A stretch of DNA of 64,000 bases from Candidatus Lloydbacteria bacterium RIFCSPHIGHO2_02_FULL_50_18 (GCA_001821395.1 MHLM01000004.1:32001-96000), one strand, 5' to 3'; positions 1,837-50,815 are shown, counted from the stretch's first letter. Numbers and translations are program-made. The notes: generated by a model from the sequence alone, not told the origin.

Positions 1837-2216
1837 GAGAGGGCGGGAATTGGTCACAAGTCATACCATCTCCAGTTAACTCTTTCTGCTCACAGAAGTT
1901 TCAAAGGTCAGTCCTTGGCCCTGCCTGCGCAGGCAGGTTTGAAAGGTCTCTCCTTGGAAACTGATTCGGAAGACCTTAACGAGAGATGGTATCACTAAGC
2001 GTATGCGGAGCAAGGCTCCTTATCCGTTAAGTGCACCACGGAGAGGGCGGGAATTTCTCGGCTTACAGCCGCAATACACCTTTGCGATTTATTCAGCATA
2101 AGAATGCTTCACAAATATCACCACGAGGAGTACTTCATTTTTCTAAGACGGAGTACCGTTAAGAAAAATTGGTCGCGCAAAGCTTTTCGAATCTCTTTGC
2201 GAGAGGGCGGATGCGG
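1837..2216 (-). repeat. array of degenerate mini-elements downstream of tRNA-Ser, each ending in a partial copy of the tRNA-Ser 3' end
   Basis: GAGAGGGCGG(GAATT) occurs at 1837-1851, 2041-2056 and 2201-2216; it is the reverse complement of the tRNA-Ser acceptor 3' strand/T-stem. An inverted copy TTCGAATCCCGCCCTCTC lies at 2329-2346. The insert next to it starts AGACGGAGGCG, as does the insert at 45256. Confidence 0.45.
2125..2178 (-). repeat. conserved intergenic hairpin repeat (family M2), copy 1
   Basis: Reads (g)AGTACTTCCATTTTTCTAAG-stem-loop-CTTAGAAAAATTGGTCGC. Two related copies lie at 34395-34449 and 35550-35600. Confidence 0.6.
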
Positions 2217-10771: not shown

Positions 10772-10875
10772 TTTTCGCGCCTCACTTTGTTACGGGGCCC
10801 CAGCGACTCGGTCAACATATATGAATATGTCTTCCTTGTCGCTTTCCCCGCGCCTCGTGACGCATCGAAAAATGA
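10772..10875. repeat. intergenic repeat A, copy 1 (about 93% identical to 35327-35440)
   Basis: TTTTCGCGCCTCACTTTGTT...CCCCAGCGACTCGGTCAACATATATGAATATGTCTTCCTTGTCGCTTTCCCCGCGCCTCGTGA(C/T)GCATCGAAAA. Both copies start within 15 nt after an ATPase-gene stop codon (pilT here; ftsE for copy 2). Confidence 0.8.
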
Positions 10876-11276
10876 AAGTCATGAAGGGTGTCGTTGTTCG
10901 ACGCCTCGCCCTGTATCAAAAAATAGGCCTCAGGTCTTATGTCGTGGGTCCGACAAACGTACTTTGAGTACGTCTGCTCGGACACCACTTCCTTGACGCC
11001 TCGTATTGCATCAGAAACCACGTCGAATTTGCATCTAATGCTCAACGCCTCGTGACGTATCGAAAAATGGAAGTGCTCTTGTGGCGCCTTGAGTACTGAA
11101 TTTTAGCAGTACGCTTATGGTATATCAAAAAATATTACTTCATATCGTTGATTGCTCGAATGTACTCCGAATATGTCTATCGGATATCGCCGCGTAAGGA
11201 GCCACCCTTCTTTGGTGGTTCGTTTTTATAAAGATGCTGTATAATATACTGGTCAGCTAAGTGACATCAACCACAT

Positions 11277-12488: not shown

Positions 12489-12745
12489 TCAAGAGTTCGC
12501 TAAGGTCGCGTCTACGTCGTTATCTGCGGAACGAACCCCGCTCGTCGTACTCCGAGTACGCCTCGGGAGGTGTCGTTCCTTGATGCCTCGTATCCACGAT
12601 CTTATCGGACTTTTGGGTGCGGCCTGCTCGCGGACCCTGTCACTTGGTCAACATATTTGCGTCAGCATCTTCCTTTTTTCCATTTTGGAACGACTTCCGT
12701 TGTTCTTTTTCTTAGGTTTGGTTAAAAAGACTCATATCGCATATA

Positions 12746-25234: not shown

Positions 25235-25392
25235 GGAAGCATCTGCATGCTTCCGACGAGACTCGAACTCGCCATCACCATGATGAGTACTTCCAATTTC
25301 ATACTCTCTGTAGTCGTTGAAATTTAGGTCGCTCCATAAAGCCTGCGATGACGATCTCGAATAAGCTTCGCTTCTCGTCCGTCCCGTAAATA
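25235..25392 (+). repeat. tRNA-3'-end mimic mini-element, instance 3 (downstream of tRNA-Asp)
   Basis: Hairpin GGAAGCAT-CTGC-ATGCTTCC; GACGAGACTCGAA, the inverted copy of the tRNA-Asp T-loop/T-stem; a ~105-nt insert ending ACGATCTCGAATA; then TCTCGTCCGTCCCGTAAATAC, an 85% copy of the last 21 nt of tRNA-Asp including the downstream AAATAC. Confidence 0.5.
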
Positions 25393-25415: not shown

Positions 25416-25484
25416 TTGTTCTTGTTGCGGGACCTGGAATCGAACCAGGGCCTTCAGGTTATGAGCCTGACGAGGTACCGCTCC
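25416..25484 (-). tRNA. tRNA-Met(CAU) elongator type, or tRNA-Ile2 if lysidinylated
   Basis: Acceptor GCGGGAT, anticodon stem TCAGG/CCTGA with loop CTCATAA, T-arm CCTGG-TTCGATT-CCAGG; 69 nt, followed by a hairpin/T-run terminator at 25390-25412. Confidence 0.75.
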
Positions 25485-32619: not shown

Positions 32620-33297
32620 TCATATAGGAAACAGCTCGGGTCTGTCGGTGAAGATGCGTTCCGCTCCCCAATCGTGAACGCGTCGCGCGACGGAAAGGTC
32701 ATTCACGGTAAAGACAAAGACGTGCAGACCGAGTTTCCGGGCTTGCTTCATGAAGAGGGAGCCGTACTGCATATCCATGTCGGCATTCATCCATTCAACG
32801 TGGAGATTGTCGATCCCATTCCGGGCGAGCATCGTGATATATCGCGGAAGCGGGATAGCATCCATGATCGCCGCGACGCATATCTCCGGAAAATGTTTTT
32901 TGATAAGGACTGCAGTCGGATGGTGAAATGTCGAGAGCATGAACTGTTCCGGCCTCCATCCGTCGTATTCAATGTACCAGCGTACTAGCTCAAGCACTTG
33001 TTTCCAGATGATCGGATCCTTTATCTCGATATTCACGTCGCATCGTGCGTTCACGGCATCGAGCACGTCAACGATCGTTGGAGTCTCCCCGCAAGAGGCG
33101 GCATCATGAGCGATGATGGGGAAATGCGCTTTTCCGAGGGGGTTCCGTCGCGCATCGAACTCGACCATGGTCGCCTTCTCGTCGATCGCACTGCGAAATG
33201 CTTGGAGCGAATTTTCAGAAACAATGACGGAATTGTCATCCCGTGTGACGTTTCCATGACGCCCACGATGATAGATCAGGTTGTCGTGCAGGAACAT
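32620..33297 (-). CDS. glycerophosphodiester phosphodiesterase family protein
   Basis: HRGRHG...ENSLQAF...VEFDARR, IIAHD, NIEIK, FTVND and GAERIFTD motifs of the GDPD family. Confidence 0.75.
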   Translation of the reverse strand: MFLHDNLIYHRGRHGNVTRDDNSVIVSENSLQAFRSAIDEKATMVEFDARRNPLGKAHFPIIAHDAASCGETPTIVDVLDAVNARCDVNIEIKDPIIWKQVLELVRWYIEYDGWRPEQFMLSTFHHPTAVLIKKHFPEICVAAIMDAIPLPRYITMLARNGIDNLHVEWMNADMDMQYGSLFMKQARKLGLHVFVFTVNDLSVARRVHDWGAERIFTDRPELFPI

Positions 33298-33353
33298 GCG
33301 TCGCTCCTTTTTCTTGTCTGTGCCTATTCAACCCGTGTTTGCGTATTGAGTCA

Positions 33354-34280
33354 ATGAGCGCGGAATTCCTCCGCTTTGCTATACTGTTTATTATGATCGA
33401 ACAAGAAGAACCGAATGCCAAGCGCATTAAAGAATTGGAGGACGCCATGCAAGCGGCTGATTTTTGGGTGAATAAAGAGAAGGCGCAGGCGGAGATCCGT
33501 GAGTTGCAGGAATTGAAGAATGTTGCCGAGGGAGGAGGAAGATATGACAAGGCCAATGCAATCATCACCATCTTCTCCGGTGCCGGAGGAGATGACTCTG
33601 AAGATTTCTCCGCTATGCTTGTGCGGATGTATTTCAAGTATTGTGAGCGGAGAGGGTGGGGCTATGAGGTCCTGCATGAGAACGAGAACGATCATGGCGG
33701 GTATCGCAATATCACCTTTGAGGTGAGGGGGAGCGCCTCATACGGAGAGCTGAAGAACGAGTCCGGCGTGCATCGTCTTGTGCGTATCTCACCGTTCAAC
33801 GCGAATGCGAAGCGTCACACGTCGTTCTCGATGGTTGAGGTGATCCCGAAATTCAAGAAAGGGGAGATCGAGGCACTTCCTGAGGGCGAAGTGCGTTTTG
33901 AATATTCGCGCTCGGGCGGTGCGGGTGGACAGAATGTGAACAAGCGCGAGACCGCGGTGCGCGCGATACATGAGCCGACGGGGCTTGCTGTGCACTGTTC
34001 GACGGGGCGTTCCCAGTTACATAATCGTGAAATGGCTCTTGAATTGCTGACGGCAAAAGTATTTCACTTACGTGAGTCACTCACCAATGCGGAAAAGGAG
34101 AAGATGTATGTCTCGAAAACGACAAAAGTCGAATGGGGAAATCAGATACGTTCGTACGTCCTCCATCCGTACAAAATGGTGAAGGATCATCGTACCGATG
34201 TGGAGACGTCAAAGGTCGACGCCGTCCTCGAAGACGGTGAGATCGACGAGTTCATCAAAGCAGAGAGGGATCTCAAGTAA
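33354..34280 (+). CDS. prfB: peptide chain release factor 2, in one continuous frame
   Basis: GGQ motif RSGGAGGQNVNK, SPF tripeptide (RISPFNANAK) and the RF2-type domain order. The ORF is open from 33339 (TTG); ATG candidates lie at 33354 and 33393. Domain 1 is about 50 aa shorter than in E. coli RF2. Confidence 0.85.
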   Translation: MSAEFLRFAILFIMIEQEEPNAKRIKELEDAMQAADFWVNKEKAQAEIRELQELKNVAEGGGRYDKANAIITIFSGAGGDDSEDFSAMLVRMYFKYCERRGWGYEVLHENENDHGGYRNITFEVRGSASYGELKNESGVHRLVRISPFNANAKRHTSFSMVEVIPKFKKGEIEALPEGEVRFEYSRSGGAGGQNVNKRETAVRAIHEPTGLAVHCSTGRSQLHNREMALELLTAKVFHLRESLTNAEKEKMYVSKTTKVEWGNQIRSYVLHPYKMVKDHRTDVETSKVDAVLEDGEIDEFIKAERDLK

Positions 34281-34282
34281 AA

Positions 34283-34375
34283 GGTGTTAAACCCCGGGGC
34301 AAGCCCTGGACTCGCAATCTGCTCGCAAAGCCTCGCGCGAGTCCGCGGCAGAGCCGCGGGGTATTAAACCTTTTT
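34283..34375 (+). other. highly structured ~95-nt element (nested stem-loops) immediately after the prfB stop
   Basis: Outer arms AAGGTGTTAAACCCCGGGG and CCGCGGGGTATTAAACCTT are near-complementary; inner arms GGACTCGC and GCGAGTCC. Confidence 0.4.
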
Positions 34376-34394
34376 AGCTCTCCTCGGCACCACG

Positions 34395-34449
34395 GAGAGT
34401 ACTTCCATTTTTCTAAGTGGATGACCACTAAGAAAAATTGGTCGCTCGG
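34395..34449 (-). repeat. hairpin repeat family M2, copy 2
   Basis: GAGAGTACTTCCATTTTTCTAAGTGG-atga-CCACTAAGAAAAATTGGTCGCTCGG. Confidence 0.6.
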
Positions 34450-34638
34450 AAATGAAAAAGAAGATTTTTTCATTTCGCTCGCTCTACGTCGGCAATAAAA
34501 AAGCGCTATCGTCTCTTCCGTTGTTTGAGTTATTTTGTCTACCTAGGAACTTTTTCGTGAGTGTTCTTCTTCGGCAAATTCATTTATCGGTGAAGCAGGA
34601 TCCGGGACTCCTAGAAACTCGAATGGCATTACTGTATA

Positions 34639-35326: not shown

Positions 35327-35440
35327 ATTTTCGCGCCTCACTTTGTTGTAAGGCAGCGCACTTATGCCCCAGCGACTCGGTCAACATATATGAATATGTC
35401 TTCCTTGTCGCTTTCCCCGCGCCTCGTGATGCATCGAAAA
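35327..35440. repeat. intergenic repeat A, copy 2
   Basis: About 93% identical to 10772-10875; begins 2 nt after the ftsE stop. Confidence 0.8.
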
Positions 35441-35549
35441 TATTCGAGAATATTTCCTGCATGGCTTCGCTCTTTATCCAAAATCTTAAAGAATGATACA
35501 TAGAACTTCAACCAACACTGACACTAGAGGACGCGTTGCGCCTCGTGAT

Positions 35550-35600
35550 GTGACCAATTTTTCTCAGCGGTACTCCGCTTTAGAAAAATGAAATGCCCTC
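35550..35600 (+). repeat. hairpin repeat family M2, copy 3
   Basis: GTGACCAATTTTTCTCAGCGG-tact-CCGCTTTAGAAAAATGAAATGCC. It is directly preceded by GCGCCTCGTGATG, a member of the GCCTCGT motif family. Confidence 0.6.
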
Positions 35601-35694
35601 TGTGGTACATCAAAAATATTTCGGCCGGCATATTGACATAATCAGTTATTTTCATAGGATGAGTATTGGAAGAGTTTGAAAAGGAGAATTGACC

Positions 35695-45234: not shown

Positions 45235-45442
45235 CTCGCGGGTCAGGGACTCGAAAGACGGAGGCGGTCTACGCCGCCACTTTCCTAAGTGCGGTGTCGC
45301 CGAGCGACATTGTTTTCTTATGAGTAAGCGAGTTAGAAAACAAGAAGTACTCTTGTGGTGCCGGGGTCGAGAGCACTTAGGCTTTTGGCTGCCTTGCGCC
45401 AAAATATTTAGTGACTCGTGATCAAGTTTGACCCGTAGACAT
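45235..45442 (+). repeat. second tRNA-Gln-derived mini-element with a different insert (module C)
   Basis: CTCGCGGGTCAGGGACTCGAA (inverted copy); an insert starting AGACGGAGGCG, as at 2217-2326 in reverse complement; a degenerate terminal copy TTTGACCCGTAGACA. Preceded by a long hairpin at 45175-45232 built from the tRNA-Gln 3' end and its complement. Confidence 0.4.
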
Positions 45443-45826: not shown

Positions 45827-46040
45827 AGACAAAACCCTCCTCGTGAACAAACCGCCATAAATAGTACACCAGTAGCTTTGAGAGTCAAGAATGATCAGAA
45901 AATGTAGCAAGTGCACCTAGTGCTCTTCGTATCAGATATATCGACACCAAGTCATCCGACCAAGGTGGGCTTGACTGACCACGGTTTTATCTAGGGTCGG
46001 CCAGCTTTTAAAAACAGAAAAGCGGTATAATTCAGAGTAT

Positions 46041-46394
46041 ATGAATATTTCTAAGAAAAAATTTGTTGCCCTCTTCCTCATTTCTGCGTTTGCCTTTCAA
46101 TTCATCTCCAACTCACTTTTTGGGTCAGACGTTCGACTCTTTCCTCAGAAAGGGGAGTCTTTGTTGGGGACGGATCCACAAATAGGCTGGAAGAGTGCCG
46201 GATACAAAATTCAATTGCCTATCAAAATTGTTTTGATGGGACCCATGCTGCTTTCTACTGATTTTTTGCGAGATGATCCACCACCTCCATTTGTTGCCGC
46301 TGTATTTGCTCTCTACTGGTCGATCCTTGCCTTATTTATTTACTATCTTATCGGTATTATAAGTAGAAGACATCCTCTATGTGTTTCTGCTTGA
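46041..46394 (+). CDS. hypothetical membrane/secreted protein
   Basis: 117 aa with N- and C-terminal hydrophobic segments. Confidence 0.35.
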
Positions 46395-46548
46395 GTGCTT
46401 GGGTAATTTTGTGAGCAAGGAGGAGAGATGGGTTATATCTGTTTTGTTCAAGCGAAATAATTGTTTGTCTGGTTACTCCTGCAAGTTCAGCAAGTTTTTC
46501 TTGCGTAAGGTTTAATTTATTTCGATAAAGAGCAATGTTTGTTTCCAT
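46357..46548 (-). CDS. XRE-family HTH transcriptional regulator
   Basis: 63 aa, [35 protein letters not shown]: a classic Cro/C1-type HTH. Confidence 0.8.
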
Positions 46549-46550
46549 TT

Positions 46551-46979
46551 TTAATTTTTCTTATCTAAATAGAAATTTGAAGCGGCTTTAACGATAGTAC
46601 CAACGATGAGAGCTAATAAGATCACCGGATCAACTCTCGTGATCTCGTTTACAACAATGCCTGCGGCAATCTGATAACCGATGCCTGCGGTGAGCACTAC
46701 TAAGATAGCCCAAAGGGCATTTCGCTCAGAGATCGCTTCGTGTATTATATCCCGCTCGTCTTTCGGCACATGAACCATCATAGCTATGAAATCGATACCA
46801 AAAACGATCGCCCACAATGAGAGCAATACTACTTGCGTTGACCCAATGACATTCATTTCAGTTATGACAATTATCGGCAGTATCATAACGACAATATATG
46901 CCCAGCCTTGCCAAGTAGAAGGTGTCAGCCCCCAGCCCGTATACTTTCTTCTTTTGAACCACTCCGGTTTTGCGATCAT
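46551..46979 (-). CDS. DUF2975-like multi-TM membrane protein (usual partner of small XRE regulators)
   Basis: Four TM helices. Its start follows 3 nt after the XRE gene stop; the start was chosen at MIAKPEWF (the ORF is open to 47036). Confidence 0.45.
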
Positions 46980-47278
46980 ATAATTATGTTTATTACTAAT
47001 GTAATATATACTATACGTAAAATATATATTACACAAGCGCTATTGCGGATAACTTGCATTACGGGTAAAAGTTTCACTGCGGATATTGAATGCTAAGTCA
47101 GGAGATCGTTTTGGGCGGTCTTCCGGGGTGCCTCTTCGTGAGACCCTGAAAGGTAGTTTGTAGGGCAATGCGTCGTCTTCACTCCATCTTTTTCGCCTCT
47201 AATATTTATGCTTCTTCTAACTTAAATAGGTTCCAGTTTGTTCCTGACGCGCAGTATTTTTTTTGGTATGCTCATTTT

Positions 47279-47605
47279 ATGAAGATAGTAAATCCAAGAG
47301 TCGTCCCTGATGTAGCTCAAAAATATATCATCGCCAAGATTTTCAATAGCGATGAACTTCTGCTTTGGGGCGATCCAGAAATCGAATGGCATAAGGACAT
47401 TGCAGAAGAAATGGGTGACGCAGGCCTCGTTGTTGAATGGGTAAGGGGAGGAGGAAGATTGAAATTCGTGACTGATTCGAAAACTATTTATGTCTGGGGT
47501 AAAAGTAGTATGTATGGAGCCGCGTCATTTCGGGAAGCGAAGAACATTTTGAGGATCGCTTATTCTGACTATGACATTCTTAATGAGATCCCTCCAGAAG
47601 AATAG
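47279..47605 (+). CDS. hypothetical protein
   Basis: ORF open from 47168, with the start chosen at MKIVNPR; no known motifs. Confidence 0.35.
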   Translation: MKIVNPRVVPDVAQKYIIAKIFNSDELLLWGDPEIEWHKDIAEEMGDAGLVVEWVRGGGRLKFVTDSKTIYVWGKSSMYGAASFREAKNILRIAYSDYDILNEIPPEE

Positions 47606-47684
47606 TTCCAACGTCGTCCCCTGCATCTAATTTGATAAATGCGCTAATCTTGCTGATTGGCATTTTTTAAAGCCAATGTCTGTT

Positions 47685-47990
47685 TTATGAAAAATCTCGT
47701 TTCCCTTCCCAGGGGATACCCCCGTAGTCCAATAATAGTTCTTCACCAGATCGAATATCTCTTGAGGAGATAAAATAAAATTTATCTCCATTTTGTAACA
47801 GCCCTATGTTGGGATCTTGTGAATGATTTATTTTCTCTCCGAGGCTCGTTCTCGCATAATCCACATCAGGATTTCCCGTGGTGCTAATTCTTTTGAATCC
47901 TAACCCGATATTCTCACCGCAGACGATATTATCTCTAGTGAAAACTCCATGCCCCGCAATATTTGATCCCTTTATTTCGAGGTTGACCAT
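47685..47990 (-). CDS. minimal SET-domain protein (putative protein-lysine methyltransferase)
   Basis: 101 aa with NHSQDPN (SET NHSC(D/N)PN motif) and a C-terminal GEELLLDYG (SET ELxFDY motif). Confidence 0.6.
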   Translation of the reverse strand: MVNLEIKGSNIAGHGVFTRDNIVCGENIGLGFKRISTTGNPDVDYARTSLGEKINHSQDPNIGLLQNGDKFYFISSRDIRSGEELLLDYGGIPWEGKRDFS

Positions 47991-48020
47991 TGCTTTGATT
48001 ATAGCTTTTTGTTAATTTCC

Positions 48021-48506
48021 TCATCGTCTCCATCCCGCATCATCGAATCGTGCGCCATCTCCGTTGAGGTATTTTTGCATCATTTCCTTTGCTGGCCCTC
48101 GGCGCACCCATGCATCATTGACTCCCGTCATGTCGACAAGAATACCTGCAGTGATGATTGCAACAATGAATCCCGCGATGATGATCTTGAAATCTATCTT
48201 GTAGGAAAAATCATAGCGTCGGAGCAACCATATTCCGAGAACGAGTCCGAGTATCGCAAATACGGGCGCCCACCACGGGAAACTCGAAAGAAATTGCTCA
48301 AGGCGATATTCTCCCATTGGTCCGTGCGACCGAGAAAGAAAACGCAGTAATCCAAAAAGGAAAACTGAGACAACTATTGAAGAGACCAACCCCAAGAAGG
48401 TGAGTAGTGATCCGAGAATAAAGTATATCTTTGGGCGGGGTTTTATCTGCTCACCATGGATCTTTCCCATGATGGTGTCGGTGATGTTGTTTAATTCTTT
48501 TGACAT
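48021..48506 (-). CDS. membrane protein, putative anti-sigma factor
   Basis: Immediately downstream of, and overlapping, the ECF sigma gene; N-terminal cytoplasmic segment followed by four TM helices. Confidence 0.4.
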   Translation of the reverse strand: MSKELNNITDTIMGKIHGEQIKPRPKIYFILGSLLTFLGLVSSIVVSVFLFGLLRFLSRSHGPMGEYRLEQFLSSFPWWAPVFAILGLVLGIWLLRRYDFSYKIDFKIIIAGFIVAIITAGILVDMTGVNDAWVRRGPAKEMMQKYLNGDGARFDDAGWRR

Positions 48507-49033
48507 AAGTGTTTCATTAAGGCTTTTGCGCGACTTACGCGCGTCGCAACGGTACCCATTGGTATGCGCAGGATGTCGCTGATCTCTGCATACGACTTCT
48601 CTTCTATATAATACAACGTGAGCGGTTCAGCGTAGAGGAGGGGTATCTGTTCGAGGCACTTCGTCACCATCTCCACTGTTTCTTTTTGCTCGAATTCCTT
48701 TTCGATGTCTTCATCACTTACAAAATCCGCAGTATCCAAGAGAGGGACTTCACTCGGATATTTTTTGATGATGTTGAGTGCCACATTATGTGCAATACGA
48801 TATATCCAGCTCGAAAATTTCTTTTTTACGTCAAAACCGTTGAGATTGATGTACGCGTTAATGAAGGCTTCCTGGACGACGTCGGTCGCCATGTGTTCAT
48901 CCTTGATGAGGTGAGTGACGTAGCGGAGTAGTTTGTGTTGATATCGCTCAATGAGTATAGCGTAAAGATCCCGATCAGTTGATCGAACTTTTTCAACTAT
49001 TGCTTCATCTGAAAGTTTTTCGTTCTCGTCCAT
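48491..49033 (-). CDS. ECF-type RNA polymerase sigma-70 factor
   Basis: Region 2 (YRIAHNVALNIIKK) and region 4 HTH (YAEISDILRIPMGTVATRVSRAKALM); 180 aa. Confidence 0.8.
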   Translation of the reverse strand: MDENEKLSDEAIVEKVRSTDRDLYAILIERYQHKLLRYVTHLIKDEHMATDVVQEAFINAYINLNGFDVKKKFSSWIYRIAHNVALNIIKKYPSEVPLLDTADFVSDEDIEKEFEQKETVEMVTKCLEQIPLLYAEPLTLYYIEEKSYAEISDILRIPMGTVATRVSRAKALMKHLCQKN

Positions 49034-49120
49034 ATAAAAATTCTACTCAGTATTATTGATCATGTACACTAAATCCCCGATCGTGACTCGGGGTAGTGTG
49101 CTTGGGGGTTGTGCTTTTGC

Positions 49121-49492
49121 TTAACGATTCATGTGCCTGCCCATCCCTTTTCCTCGTCCTTCTCCACCTCCAACACCGAGGCCAAGTTCTTGGCGGATCT
49201 TTTGTGCTTCAGCGATCTTTCCTTGCTCTGCCAATTCATGAGCCTCAGCAAATTTTGCAAAGTTCCCCTGATTGATGACTTCCGTTGCTCGTCCTCGTCC
49301 TTGCATCAGCTCTTTCCATGCATTGTAATCCTTCTGCTCAAATACCTTCTCCATTGCCTCATGGCGCTCTGTGCTGTAGTTTGGACCTTTAACGCTAGGG
49401 TCTCCTCTATATGCAAGCGCAGCGCTCGCGGATACCCCGAGTCCTCCAAGGACAAGTGCTGCAACTCCTAAGCCGAATAGTTTTTTGTTCAT
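49121..49492 (-). CDS. small secreted Lys/Glu-rich protein
   Basis: Signal peptide MNKKLFGLGVAALVLGGLGVSASAALA followed by a helical charged region and a G-rich tail. Confidence 0.45.
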   Translation of the reverse strand: MNKKLFGLGVAALVLGGLGVSASAALAYRGDPSVKGPNYSTERHEAMEKVFEQKDYNAWKELMQGRGRATEVINQGNFAKFAEAHELAEQGKIAEAQKIRQELGLGVGGGEGRGKGMGRHMNR

Positions 49493-49741
49493 ATGTGTTT
49501 CTCTTTAGATCAATGATTAATTTCAACCCCCTCCACTATTAATACAAGCTCAGGGAGTATTTTCTTTCATCGGTGAAAATTGCCCGAATTTCAACGTTTA
49601 TTCTCGGTCTTTACGATGGTCTTTTCCGTTGCGAGGGAGGAATGACCCGTGTGAGCTACGATCAGCGGATCGAATGACGCCTGTTGACAGTCGTTGTCTT
49701 CTTTTGACACACTTACTGAGTGAGAAGCAGGTAAAGAAATC

Positions 49742-50815
49742 ATGCATAAAGGGTACAAGCCGATAAAATTCCCGGAAGATGAATCAATCCACGATTATAT
49801 CGTTGAGTGGTGGTATTTTAACGGCCACCTGAAAGATGCAGATGGCAATGAATATCCTTTTATGGACTGTCTGTTCAAGGTGGATATGAAGAAGGTGAAA
49901 AGACCTTTTTTGAGTCGGCTGCGGATCAAAACAGCCTACTTCTCTCATTTCTCTCTTTCGGACCTAACGAATAAAAGTTTTAATCAGCGGATAGCTCCTC
50001 TTTCGCTTGTTTCCGACGATAGCTTTTCTAAACCGCTCCTCTACATTAGTTATATCAATCCCACCGTCAAAAATAGTTACACGAACTGTGTCATTGAAAA
50101 AATAGGTGAGTCAGTTTATCATCTAAAAAATGAGGACATTGATCTCCAGTTAACGTCAGTGAAGGAGCCGCTGCTCGAAGGGGGAAACGGATTTCTCGAT
50201 TTCCATTCTCGGACAACCTATTATTACTCCTTAACGAATCTCAGAACGGTAGGAAAAATAAAGGTCAATGACAAATGGATAACTGTTACCGGCAAGTCCT
50301 GGATGGATCACCAATGGGCGGATGCGAGTTATTCCGTGAATAGGTGGGATTGGTTCTCGGTGCAATTCGATGATGATACGGAAATGGTCTGCTGTGTATA
50401 TGACGATGGCAAGGTCAAGACTTTTTTTGCCGACATTTCGTATCCGGATGGTACAGAGGGGCATTACACTGAGATCGAGATCATTCCTTTGGATAAGCAT
50501 TGGACAAGTCCAAAAAGCAAGGCGGTCTATCCAGTCTCATGGAGCATTACGATACCGGAAAAAAACATAGAGGTGAATCTGACTGCAGTGATCGAAGGTC
50601 AGGAAATGCTTTTTGGGTCAATTAATTATTGGGAGGGTCCGCTTAAGGTGGAGGGTTCATTCGGGGATAAGAGGGTAATCGGTGTCGGCTTCATGGAATT
50701 GGTCGGCTATCCATCAGAGTACAGTAATGTGAGATATCTCAAGGATGAGATCGGTAAGGTCGCAAGTTGGTTTATGTTAGCAATAAGGAAAAGGGCCCCC
50801 ACCCGTGGCTCGTAG
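49742..50815 (+). CDS. CrtC/AttH-like (hydroxyneurosporene synthase-like, lipocalin-fold) protein
   Basis: N-terminal FPEDESIHDYIVEWWYFNGHL matches the P..H...EWWY.TG.L signature of the CrtC/AttH family. Confidence 0.55.
   Translation: MHKGYKPIKFPEDESIHDYIVEWWYFNGHLKDADGNEYPFMDCLFKVDMKKVKRPFLSRLRIKTAYFSHFSLSDLTNKSFNQRIAPLSLVSDDSFSKPLLYISYINPTVKNSYTNCVIEKIGESVYHLKNEDIDLQLTSVKEPLLEGGNGFLDFHSRTTYYYSLTNLRTVGKIKVNDKWITVTGKSWMDHQWADASYSVNRWDWFSVQFDDDTEMVCCVYDDGKVKTFFADISYPDGTEGHYTEIEIIPLDKHWTSPKSKAVYPVSWSITIPEKNIEVNLTAVIEGQEMLFGSINYWEGPLKVEGSFGDKRVIGVGFMELVGYPSEYSNVRYLKDEIGKVASWFMLAIRKRAPTRGS

Follow-up and report, generated by a model that had tools for sequence, protein, structure and literature searches.

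An intergenic hairpin sequence of approximately 56–58 nt that recurs in Parcubacteria was found to occupy its sites as a discrete unit and is very probably a mobile or formerly mobile insertion. It is also probable that this non-autonomous element moves as single-stranded DNA, with the HUH (Y1)-type enzymes as the best precedent. The window (the whole 64-kb stretch of DNA that was analyzed) is bacterial, comes from Parcubacteria, and contains type IV pilus genes, prfB, ftsE, ftsX, pyrG, and eight tRNA genes; its region from 28.5 to 36.2 kb is syntenic with locus L072 (Parcubacteria group bacterium GW2011_GWA2_47_7) at 70–85% DNA identity. A family of three intergenic hairpins had been described here by the original prediction, and all three are real. 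The pattern ATTTTTCT-N(10-30)-AGAAAAAT occurs exactly three times in the window and in none of 100 dinucleotide-preserving shuffles, and GACCAATTTTTCT has three matches in the window with zero mismatches. The family is larger than three, however, as covariance models detected a total of five complete copies and one remnant in the window, a density of roughly one copy per 10–15 kb. The members and the related uninterrupted sequences are listed below with their exact limits; T denotes the strand on which the original prediction wrote the element.

Copy 1, 2119-2175, minus strand: flanked by tRNA-Ser(gct) and tRNA-Ser(act) and running in the direction of both (69 bits, E=5.5e-16).
Copy 2, 34388-34444, minus strand: in the prfB-ftsE spacer, antisense to both genes (66.6 bits).
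Copy 3, 35551-35607, plus strand: 3' of ftsE, sense, with the ends TGAC...GTGGTA (55.4 bits).
Copy 4, 45305-45360, plus strand: 290 nt downstream of tRNA-Gln, co-directional (66.1 bits).
Copy 5, 25276-25331, minus strand: 92 nt downstream of tRNA-Met (minus strand), co-directional (40.6 bits).
Remnant, ~11059-11086, plus strand: hairpin-less, found by covariance model (21.5 bits, E=0.0011).
Empty paralogue of the copy 3 site, 35419-35444, plus strand: GCGCCTCGTGATG^CATCGAAAATATT, the "simpler repeat unit" of the original prediction (^ marks the uninterrupted junction).
Second uninterrupted paralogue of the copy 3 target repeat, 10850-10871, plus strand: GCGCCTCGTGACG^CATCGAAAA.

Related copies are present at more than 200 loci in Lloyd-, Kaiser-, and Nomurabacteria and in related genomes and metagenomes. 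The genome-wide pattern search that had been proposed returned further copies, with at least 109 matching loci in genomes and at least 119 in metagenomes. The genome scan covered one genome per species with the pattern ATTTTTCT-N(12-22)-AGAAAAATTGGTC, and several element loci were often found in one genome. Approximately 90 of the at least 109 listed loci belong to Lloydbacteria, Kaiserbacteria, Nomurabacteria, Paceibacterota, and similarly labelled assemblies, and nearly all of these conserve the flank gCACCACaagRGyACTTCC, which lies outside the search pattern. The remaining listed loci (Pelagibacter, Flagellimonas, and others) lack this flank and fall inside ORFs, and these stray matches were therefore taken as chance. 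The metagenome scan was made on the same flank alone. The element family is specific to Parcubacteria (class Paceibacteria). The hairpin pattern had no match in viral contigs, for which reason a phage origin was rejected; the 5' constant had three matches there. Rfam, searched at gathering and permissive thresholds, returned no family for the element; only tRNAs exceeded the gathering threshold, and the best sub-threshold match was SNORA27, with 36 bits against a threshold of 64. An H/ACA-like RNA, suggested by this last match, was rejected for its score far below threshold and the lack of a guide pocket. A literature search, in which the constant was also entered as a text string, yielded no description of the element.

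On T, the element begins with CGAC(C), followed by one or two bulged bases and a lower stem of 8–10 A+T-rich pairs; a U·U mismatch usually follows (seen in 80 of 133 copies above the lower stem), then an upper module, the second strand of the stem, and (G)GAAGTACTCTTGTGGTG-3'. The flanks that had been reported as shared among the three copies are present but extend further, to a 5' CGAC(C) and an 18-nt 3' constant, GGAAGTACTCTTGTGGTG, which form the fixed termini of the unit. The junction GAAGTACTCTTGTGGTG|CGAC measures 21 nt and is nearly invariant over a class-level clade. In copy 1, CGACC precedes the lower stem AUUUUUCU/AGAAAAAU and the upper stem ACGG-UACU-CCGU, with GAAGTACTCCTCGTGGTG closing the unit. 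Copies 4 and 5 have stems that differ from those of copies 1–3 yet are compensated: copy 4 pairs UUGUUUUCU with AGAAAACAA below an upper module with tandem G·A, while the lower stem of copy 5 is AAUUUCA/UGAAAUU. The remnant retains the 3' arm and 3' constant (ATCGAAAAATGGAAGTGCTCTTGTGGCG), without the 5' arm or upper stem. The upper module takes three forms. The first, found in window copies 1–3, is a 4–5-bp stem with a UANU loop; the second has tandem G·A/A·G pairs with a GAA, AAA, or UACU loop, and its flanking pairs flip between G-C and C-G among variants; in the third, the module is absent, leaving a short perfect palindrome. The large hairpin starts 4–6 nt from the 5' end, and a weak, dissimilar hairpin of 4–5 bp ends at the 3' terminus. 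The folding energies of the window copies range from -9 to -19 kcal/mol, with modest z-scores of 0 to -3.2. The GCGACCA/GCACCA in the element might mimic a tRNA 3' end, and its tail may be boxA-like.

The pairing of the hairpin is maintained through extensive sequence change. It had been noted that the central stems differ between copies but stay complementary, which is confirmed in copies 1–3 (ACGG/CCGT, GTGG/CCAC, and GCGG/CCGC). The wider claim that structure is conserved over sequence also holds: in a model-based alignment of 123 metagenome copies, all eight lower-stem pairs were changed on both sides, with 173 doubly changed cells compared with 63.3±6.7 in shuffles (none of 500 as high). 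The covariation score of these copies was 0.324, compared with a maximum of 0.119 when the partners were slid. With the 3' tail fixed by the search, the lower stem occurs in many compensated versions, such as AUUUUUCU, UUGUUUUCU, AAUUUCU, GAUUUCU, AAAAAUAU, GAAAAUAU, AUUCUUAU, and AAUCCCU. Such compensatory changes are not proof of selection, since template-switch "correction" of quasi-palindromes could yield them. The persistence of U·U, G·A, and U·G mismatches on one strand, in turn, argues for recognition of the structure. The hairpin varies between copies in one genome, whereas the constant is nearly invariant over a class-level clade; REP-type repeats do not usually behave in this way, and a host function may lie behind the pattern.

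Three features from different parts of the element favor T as the relevant strand. Among 91 copies that were selected only on the tail, T gave the more stable hairpin in 71 and the complement in 10, and there were 51 G·U pairs on T versus 23 on the complement. The tandem mismatches of the upper module are G·A/A·G on T versus U·C/C·U on the complement, and only T forms tandem G·A pairs capped by GAA or AAA. A K-turn was rejected because these tandem pairs do not lie beside a 3-nt bulge. The third feature is the 3' mini-hairpin in the last 15 nt of the tail (G-UACU-CUUGU-GGUG-C), which has two U·G wobbles on T. In a set not selected on it, its pairing reached 87.9% on T compared with 85.3±0.7 after shuffling (none of 2000 as high) and 58.2% on the complement; as the covariation there is modest, it was rated a plausible helix.

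The principal new result, that the element is an insertion, came from comparing occupied sequences with uninterrupted ones. The 30 nt from each side of every unit were joined and searched against the fetched sequences, and uninterrupted counterparts were recovered for 19 elements in fetched loci and for two window copies. These 21 filled/empty comparisons, from at least 12 sequence contexts, gave identical limits (CGAC...GTGGTG), no target duplication, and at most a 1-nt (G) ambiguity. All 21 are comparisons of paralogous repeats, not of orthologous alleles. The following are examples:

Locus L218: empty TTAGCGAG^TCATCGAGC; filled TTAGCGAG, 56 nt, TCATCGAGC; the two are adjacent tandem copies of one flank.
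Locus L009: empty GAACGAGAG^ACGAAAAAAG; filled GAACGAGAG, 58 nt, CGGAAAAAG.
Locus L022 versus L190: empty CCCCACTTG^GATTTTTATAG; filled, identical flanks plus the unit.
Window copy 1 versus L045 and L043: empty GCTTTGCG^ATATTT; filled, identical flanks plus the unit.
Window copy 3 versus 35419-35444: empty CTCGTGATG^CATCGAAAATATT; filled CTCGTGATG, 57 nt, CATCAAAAATATT.

These comparisons bear directly on how the hairpin arose. According to the original prediction, it was apparently derived in place by palindromisation of the simpler GAAAAATG unit, an origin that now appears very improbable. The remnant at 11059-11086, with the 3' arm and 3' constant alone, would suit such an origin, as would the ATCGAAAAATG contained in the target repeat, which is similar to the 3' arm. 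The filled/empty comparisons contradict it, as 18 unrelated elements elsewhere have identical limits, and the complete 56–58-nt unit is found within at least 12 sequences that are unrelated to each other, across many genomes. In the window itself, the flanks of copy 3 on either side of the complete unit correspond to an uninterrupted paralogue, the joined flanks having 96% identity to 35419-35444 over 26 nt. The element had been said to sit exactly where the simpler unit has only ATCGAAAAATG; the position was right, but what is compared there is CGCCTCGTGATG^CATCGAAAATATT with CGCCTCGTGATG, the 57-nt element, and CATCAAAAATATT, a filled and an empty site. The "simpler repeat unit" is thus an unoccupied target, and palindromisation is not needed. 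That unit is present at 10851, 11046, and 35420, while the further copy claimed at 12585 bears only a weak resemblance to it.

In 16 of 19 cases, a G immediately precedes the inserted unit, and 17 of 19 have a purine at position -3, with the other positions free; over 151 copies, G reaches frequencies of 0.87 at -1 and 0.67 at -3, and outside the unit no other position is conserved. The complete unit nearly always enters immediately 3' of G (target R-N-G^). Among the sequences that it splits are other repeat families, the loop of an older palindrome (L230), a 3' fragment of tRNA-Ile, within the T-loop (L039), a duplicated piece of 5S rRNA (L092), and further copies of the element (L018 and L044). 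This explains the variable "outer stems" around many copies, which are older palindromes divided by the insertion. In L203, L128, L229, L182, L151, and L067, units follow one another head to tail with the junction GTGGTG|CGAC, and in L203 and L128 the tandem units are identical. The element's own 3' end, GTG, is an insertion site of the fitting type, in agreement with such arrays. Long direct repeats (at least 14 nt) adjoin the element in 23 of 148 copies and inverted ones in 15 of 148. Since inverted repeats are also common and the filled/empty pairs are clean, target duplication was rejected as the source of the direct repeats, and the long flanking repeats are taken as pre-existing duplicated sequence. 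The hairpin had been considered a structured RNA motif, a protein-binding site, or a tiny MITE; the last comes closest, but a classical MITE derived from a DDE transposase was rejected because the terminal inverted repeats amount only to C(G)ACCA/TGGTG (approximately 5 nt) and there is no target-site duplication.

The placement of the element is intergenic, as had been proposed, and its distance to gene ends varies among copies. With respect to protein genes, 26 copies are sense, 34 antisense, 11 convergent, and 6 divergent, with no orientation bias between sense and antisense. There was also no replication-strand bias (T on the G-rich strand in 33 copies and on the C-rich strand in 44, p=0.11), in a rough test based on the GC skew of loci of 5–14 kb. 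No gene neighbor is conserved; the neighbors comprise housekeeping genes, toxin-antitoxin pairs, and restriction-modification genes. The tRNA genes are the exception to random orientation: 35 of 161 copies lie within 400 nt of one, T is co-directional with the nearest such gene in 27 cases against 8 (36 of 46 when counted by pairs), and window copies 1, 4, and 5 are all co-directional with nearby tRNA genes. Duplicated 3' ends of tRNA and 5S genes adjoin several copies; copy 5 lies beside a tRNA-Asp-like 3' fragment, with the 3' end of the neighboring tRNA-Met at 25424.

The orientation shared with tRNA genes could also be understood if the element were a cis-acting RNA module on T, for example one co-transcribed with tRNA operons for processing, stabilization, or antitermination, with the copies in other spacers being secondary. 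The strong covariation of the hairpin, the non-Watson-Crick features confined to T (the U·U, the tandem G·A, and the two U·G wobbles), and a constant conserved over the whole class are in keeping with such a role, and the layout of a variable hairpin followed by a CUCUU/GUGG-rich tail may loosely recall the boxB-boxA-boxC arrangement of rRNA leaders. The RNA reading is nevertheless unlikely, as the random orientation to protein genes would leave about half of the copies on the wrong transcribed strand. Among 151 copies, there is no promoter or terminator at a fixed distance up- or downstream, and presence differs among close relatives. Moreover, copies lie inside other repeats, pseudo-tRNA fragments, and other copies, the folding z-scores are modest, and Rfam has no match. 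The data do not support an independent structured RNA gene, and a promoter or independent small-RNA gene was rejected for want of any positional signal up- or downstream. An intrinsic terminator was rejected because the stem is A+T-rich and both orientations occur; a run of at least five T within 30 nt downstream is present in 14 of 151 copies. A small protein was rejected as well, because the AUG within AGAAAAAUGG lacks conservation and the reading frame is disrupted by a 1-nt indel. Guide arrays of the TIGR/Tas type, in which tandem units carry two short single-stranded spacers between box C/D motifs beside a tas gene, were also rejected, given that the variable part is self-paired, the copies are mostly solitary, and no Nop-domain gene was seen alongside.

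Comparison with the related locus L072 shows that the element turns over quickly. L072 retains copy 3 at the orthologous site, while its prfB-ftsE spacer, orthologous but unalignable, showed no copy 2 and gave no model match; the neighboring L072 genes have approximately 85% DNA identity to the window. A 130-nt block around copy 1 recurs in L072 at a non-homologous place, and in other genomes, several copies are present within one 8-kb locus.

The properties described above are best accommodated by a non-autonomous element that probably moves as single-stranded T-strand DNA, on which alone all of its structural features form. A strand-specific enzyme supplied in trans would read the hairpin and the constant 3' tail and cut after G at both ends. 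The best precedent for such a reaction would be the "peel and paste" of HUH (Y1) transposases of the IS200/IS605/RAYT type. Y1 transposases serve the IS200/IS605 elements, and RAYTs act on REP sequences. The targets may likewise be single-stranded, for example the loops of hairpins or the non-template strand in strongly transcribed tRNA operons; this would explain both where insertions occur and why T tends to run in the direction of tRNA genes. IS200/IS605 elements have a marked replication-strand bias and carry similar hairpins at both ends; against a Y1 model, the present element has no replication-strand bias and its two end hairpins are dissimilar. The enzyme may be a Y1 transposase, but the assignment of this particular enzyme is tentative.

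A search for candidate enzymes found Y1-type ORFs in six of the approximately 210 element-bearing loci. Pfam confirmed Y1_Tnp in L217, L045, and L222, while L084 (without a Pfam match), L080, and L187 were Y1-like by tblastn alone. The ORFs of L222 (Pfam Y1_Tnp), L084, and L187 (both tblastn) are RAYT-like; the nearest element lies approximately 800 nt from them, on one side only, with unrelated genes between. The approximately 1.6 Mb of fetched sequence contained no autonomous IS sharing the element ends and no long form with separated hairpin arms, and element-like ends enclose none of the six Y1-type genes. The IS200-like element in L217 has hairpins unrelated to those of the element.

It is somewhat unlikely, though a possibility of some weight, that the machinery which moves the element, or once moved it and now maintains it, lies outside the known transposase families or that the element doubles as an RNA module of tRNA operons. 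In the former case, a Parcubacteria-wide enzyme, belonging to the host or selfish, would read the folded strand through GAAGTACTCTTGTGGTG|CGAC and insert the element after G; in the latter, the inserted element would serve in addition as a functional RNA module. The class-wide constant, the lack of a partner with matching ends in the fetched sequence, the absence of replication bias, and the orientation bias toward tRNA genes are compatible with this alternative. An enzyme outside the known families would, if real, represent a new type of single-strand DNA transaction.

Folding on one strand, together with insertion after G without duplication, also brings to mind the folded single-stranded sites of tyrosine recombinases, as in integron attC or the attP of CTX phage, in which case the element would be an ORF-less "cassette" at secondary sites after G. 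Like attC, the element favors structure over sequence, has conserved ends, a variable paired center, bulged bases in the lower stem, and a terminal stem-loop of variable length, and would be read as one folded strand; the duplicated tRNA and 5S 3' ends beside several copies recall integrase attachment sites. However, the attC core sites RYYYAAC and GTTRRRY (R''/R') are absent, there are no arrays of ORF cassettes, no integron integrase was seen adjoining copies, and the copies are dispersed in both orientations. The 18-nt asymmetric 3' tail outside the hairpin is a further difference, and a recombination site of this kind is considered quite unlikely. A dif/Xer site was rejected, as only the XerC-arm-like GGTGCGNNNAA matches the E. 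coli dif sequence.

Movement as double-stranded DNA, by an IS607-type serine recombinase or another enzyme that leaves no duplication, would make the hairpin a protein-binding palindrome. For IS607, insertion beside or within GG, with 0–2 bp duplicated, has been reported, and insertion next to G without duplication, the lack of terminal inverted repeats, and the lack of replication-strand bias would all agree with such an enzyme. A double-stranded substrate leaves unexplained the strand asymmetry, the conserved mismatches, and the free variation of the stem under kept pairing, and no serine recombinase was noticed in an unsystematic look at the loci examined; this explanation is improbable.

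The single-stranded insertion element proposed here has its kin among small hairpin elements without target duplication. Like the REP/REPIN sequences, it is a short extragenic imperfect palindrome present in many copies, single or clustered and in either orientation to genes, with compensatory stem changes, a conserved short sequence beside the hairpin, strand-specific structure, no target duplication, and probably a factor supplied in trans. The REP/REPIN sequences of Proteobacteria, however, have GTAG at the 5' foot of the hairpin and form inverted doublets, whereas the element has CGAC(C) without GTAG and occurs as singletons or head-to-tail arrays. In REP/RAYT systems, the RAYT gene is flanked by repeats, whereas no RAYT gene was found flanked by the element. 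The element further differs in its many stem variants per genome, the 18–21-nt constant kept across a class, and the second small hairpin at its 3' end. With the miniatures of IS200/IS605 (PATEs), it shares the lack of terminal inverted repeats and of target duplication, probably one active strand, and, more loosely, insertion 3' of a short target motif and hairpins near both ends. Unlike PATEs, it is only approximately 57 nt long, its two hairpins are unlike, no full-length IS with its ends was found, and no replication-strand bias was detected; its target motif (R-N-G) is also weak and corresponds only in part to the specific tetra- or pentanucleotide expected of such miniatures. The BOX elements of pneumococcus, ERIC, and Correia are comparable as modular, mutually nesting intergenic repeats with stable hairpins and no clear partner enzyme. 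They are longer, at approximately 100–150 nt or above, and are limited to a species or genus, whereas the element spans a class; terminal inverted repeats and TA duplications occur in several of them. What is unusual in this company is the 57-nt size, the many stem variants, and the near-invariant junction.

Parcubacteria and other bacteria of the candidate phyla radiation have very small genomes, and their mobile DNA is little known. A 57-nt element with precise ends that is common to many families offers a concrete way into the study of genome change in organisms that remain uncultured. It explains much of the intergenic repeat mosaic, including the outer inverted repeats left by split older palindromes, and it may account for some of the broken tRNA and 5S fragments, as two copies lie inside such fragments. 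If the enzyme proves to be an HUH transposase, REP-like systems would be extended to a new phylum; if not, a new mechanism would be implied. Two covariance models were built, which can be used for masking or annotating the elements in metagenome-assembled genomes.

The main element, an intergenic hairpin insertion unit of ~57 nt, is accompanied in the window by two other repeat families, copies of which are listed below.

Window copies of the second and third repeat families
2215-2280, (+), second repeat family
45368-45423, (-), second repeat family
10832-10875 and 35400-35443, third repeat, CTTCCTTGTCGCTTTCCCCGCGCCTCGTGAYGCATCGAAAA

The second family forms a long imperfect palindrome with the layout GGTCACGAGTYACTAA-hairpin-CTAAGTRCTCTCGACC. 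It has AAGTACTCT in common with the main element's tail and adjoins a main-element copy at each of its window positions; the copy next to tRNA-Ser(gct) is conserved in the fetched loci L043 and L093. Copy 3 of the main element (35551-35607, (+)) has the third repeat, CTTCCTTGTCGCTTTCCCCGCGCCTCGTGAYGCATCGAAAA, as its insertion target, and this repeat also adjoins the orthologous main element in the syntenic locus of the close relative Parcubacteria group bacterium GW2011_GWA2_47_7. In five of the fetched loci (L116, L131, L155, L160, and L198), several main-element copies have their hairpin split after the first arm by a recurring sequence, ...TCAAGGTCTGACCTTTCTTGAGATTT, which suggests a further small element nested within the main element.

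Fragments of tRNA 3' ends, derived in the window from tRNA-Ser, tRNA-Asp, and tRNA-Gln, are dispersed in the vicinity of the tRNA genes, in both direct and inverted orientations, adjoining main-element copies.

Fragments of tRNA 3' ends in the window
1837-1851, 2041-2055, 2328-2358, 25255-25279, and 45238-45255

Comparable duplicated 3' ends of tRNA-Ala and 5S were found in the fetched loci L070, L010, and L092. Integrations or inter-repeat recombination may have left such fragments as scars.

Main-element copies lie on both sides of genes in two fetched loci.

Paired main-element copies and arrays
L162, 130-199 (+) and 6403-6472 (-), inverted pair of copies
L203, 3555-3720 and 6685-6828, tandem arrays

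The inverted copies of L162 have extended identical flanks and enclose 6 kb of sequence with genes for a TdeIII-type restriction enzyme, two DNA methyltransferases, and an AAA_13 ATPase. Each array of L203 consists of three identical 53-nt units; the two have the same orientation and lie 3 kb apart, with a PhdYeFM/ParE toxin-antitoxin pair and a peptidoglycan-binding protein between them.

An Rfam match to SNORA27, an H/ACA snoRNA family, at 34371-34467 (-) falls on copy 2 of the main element (34388-34444, (-)), on the strand reading CGAC...GTGGTG; its score of 36 bits is below the threshold of 64 (E=2.3e-4 in a 1.4-kb search), and the hit was taken as a chance match to an A+U-rich hairpin.

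Several other window features were recorded.

Other window features
1709-1796, (-), tRNA-Ser with anticodon ACT (ARAGORN)
33339-34280, (+), RF2 gene (prfB), N-terminal part absent
47168-47605, Ocnus/Janus-family protein
48491-49033, (-), ECF-type sigma factor

Apart from tRNA-Arg(ACG), bacterial tRNAs rarely carry an unmodified A34; ARAGORN also called tRNA-Ser(ACT) in the related Kaiserbacteria locus L043 (3539-3625). The start of the RF2 gene is overlapped by an ORF in a different frame (32998-33357, (+)), and the split ORFs at 32998-34280 (+) look like the usual prfB programmed +1 frameshift. Downstream of tRNA-Gln, the stretch at ~46000-50000, which contains the sigma factor and Ocnus/Janus-family genes, has a GC content of 0.40-0.45 versus ~0.50 and may be an integrated island.
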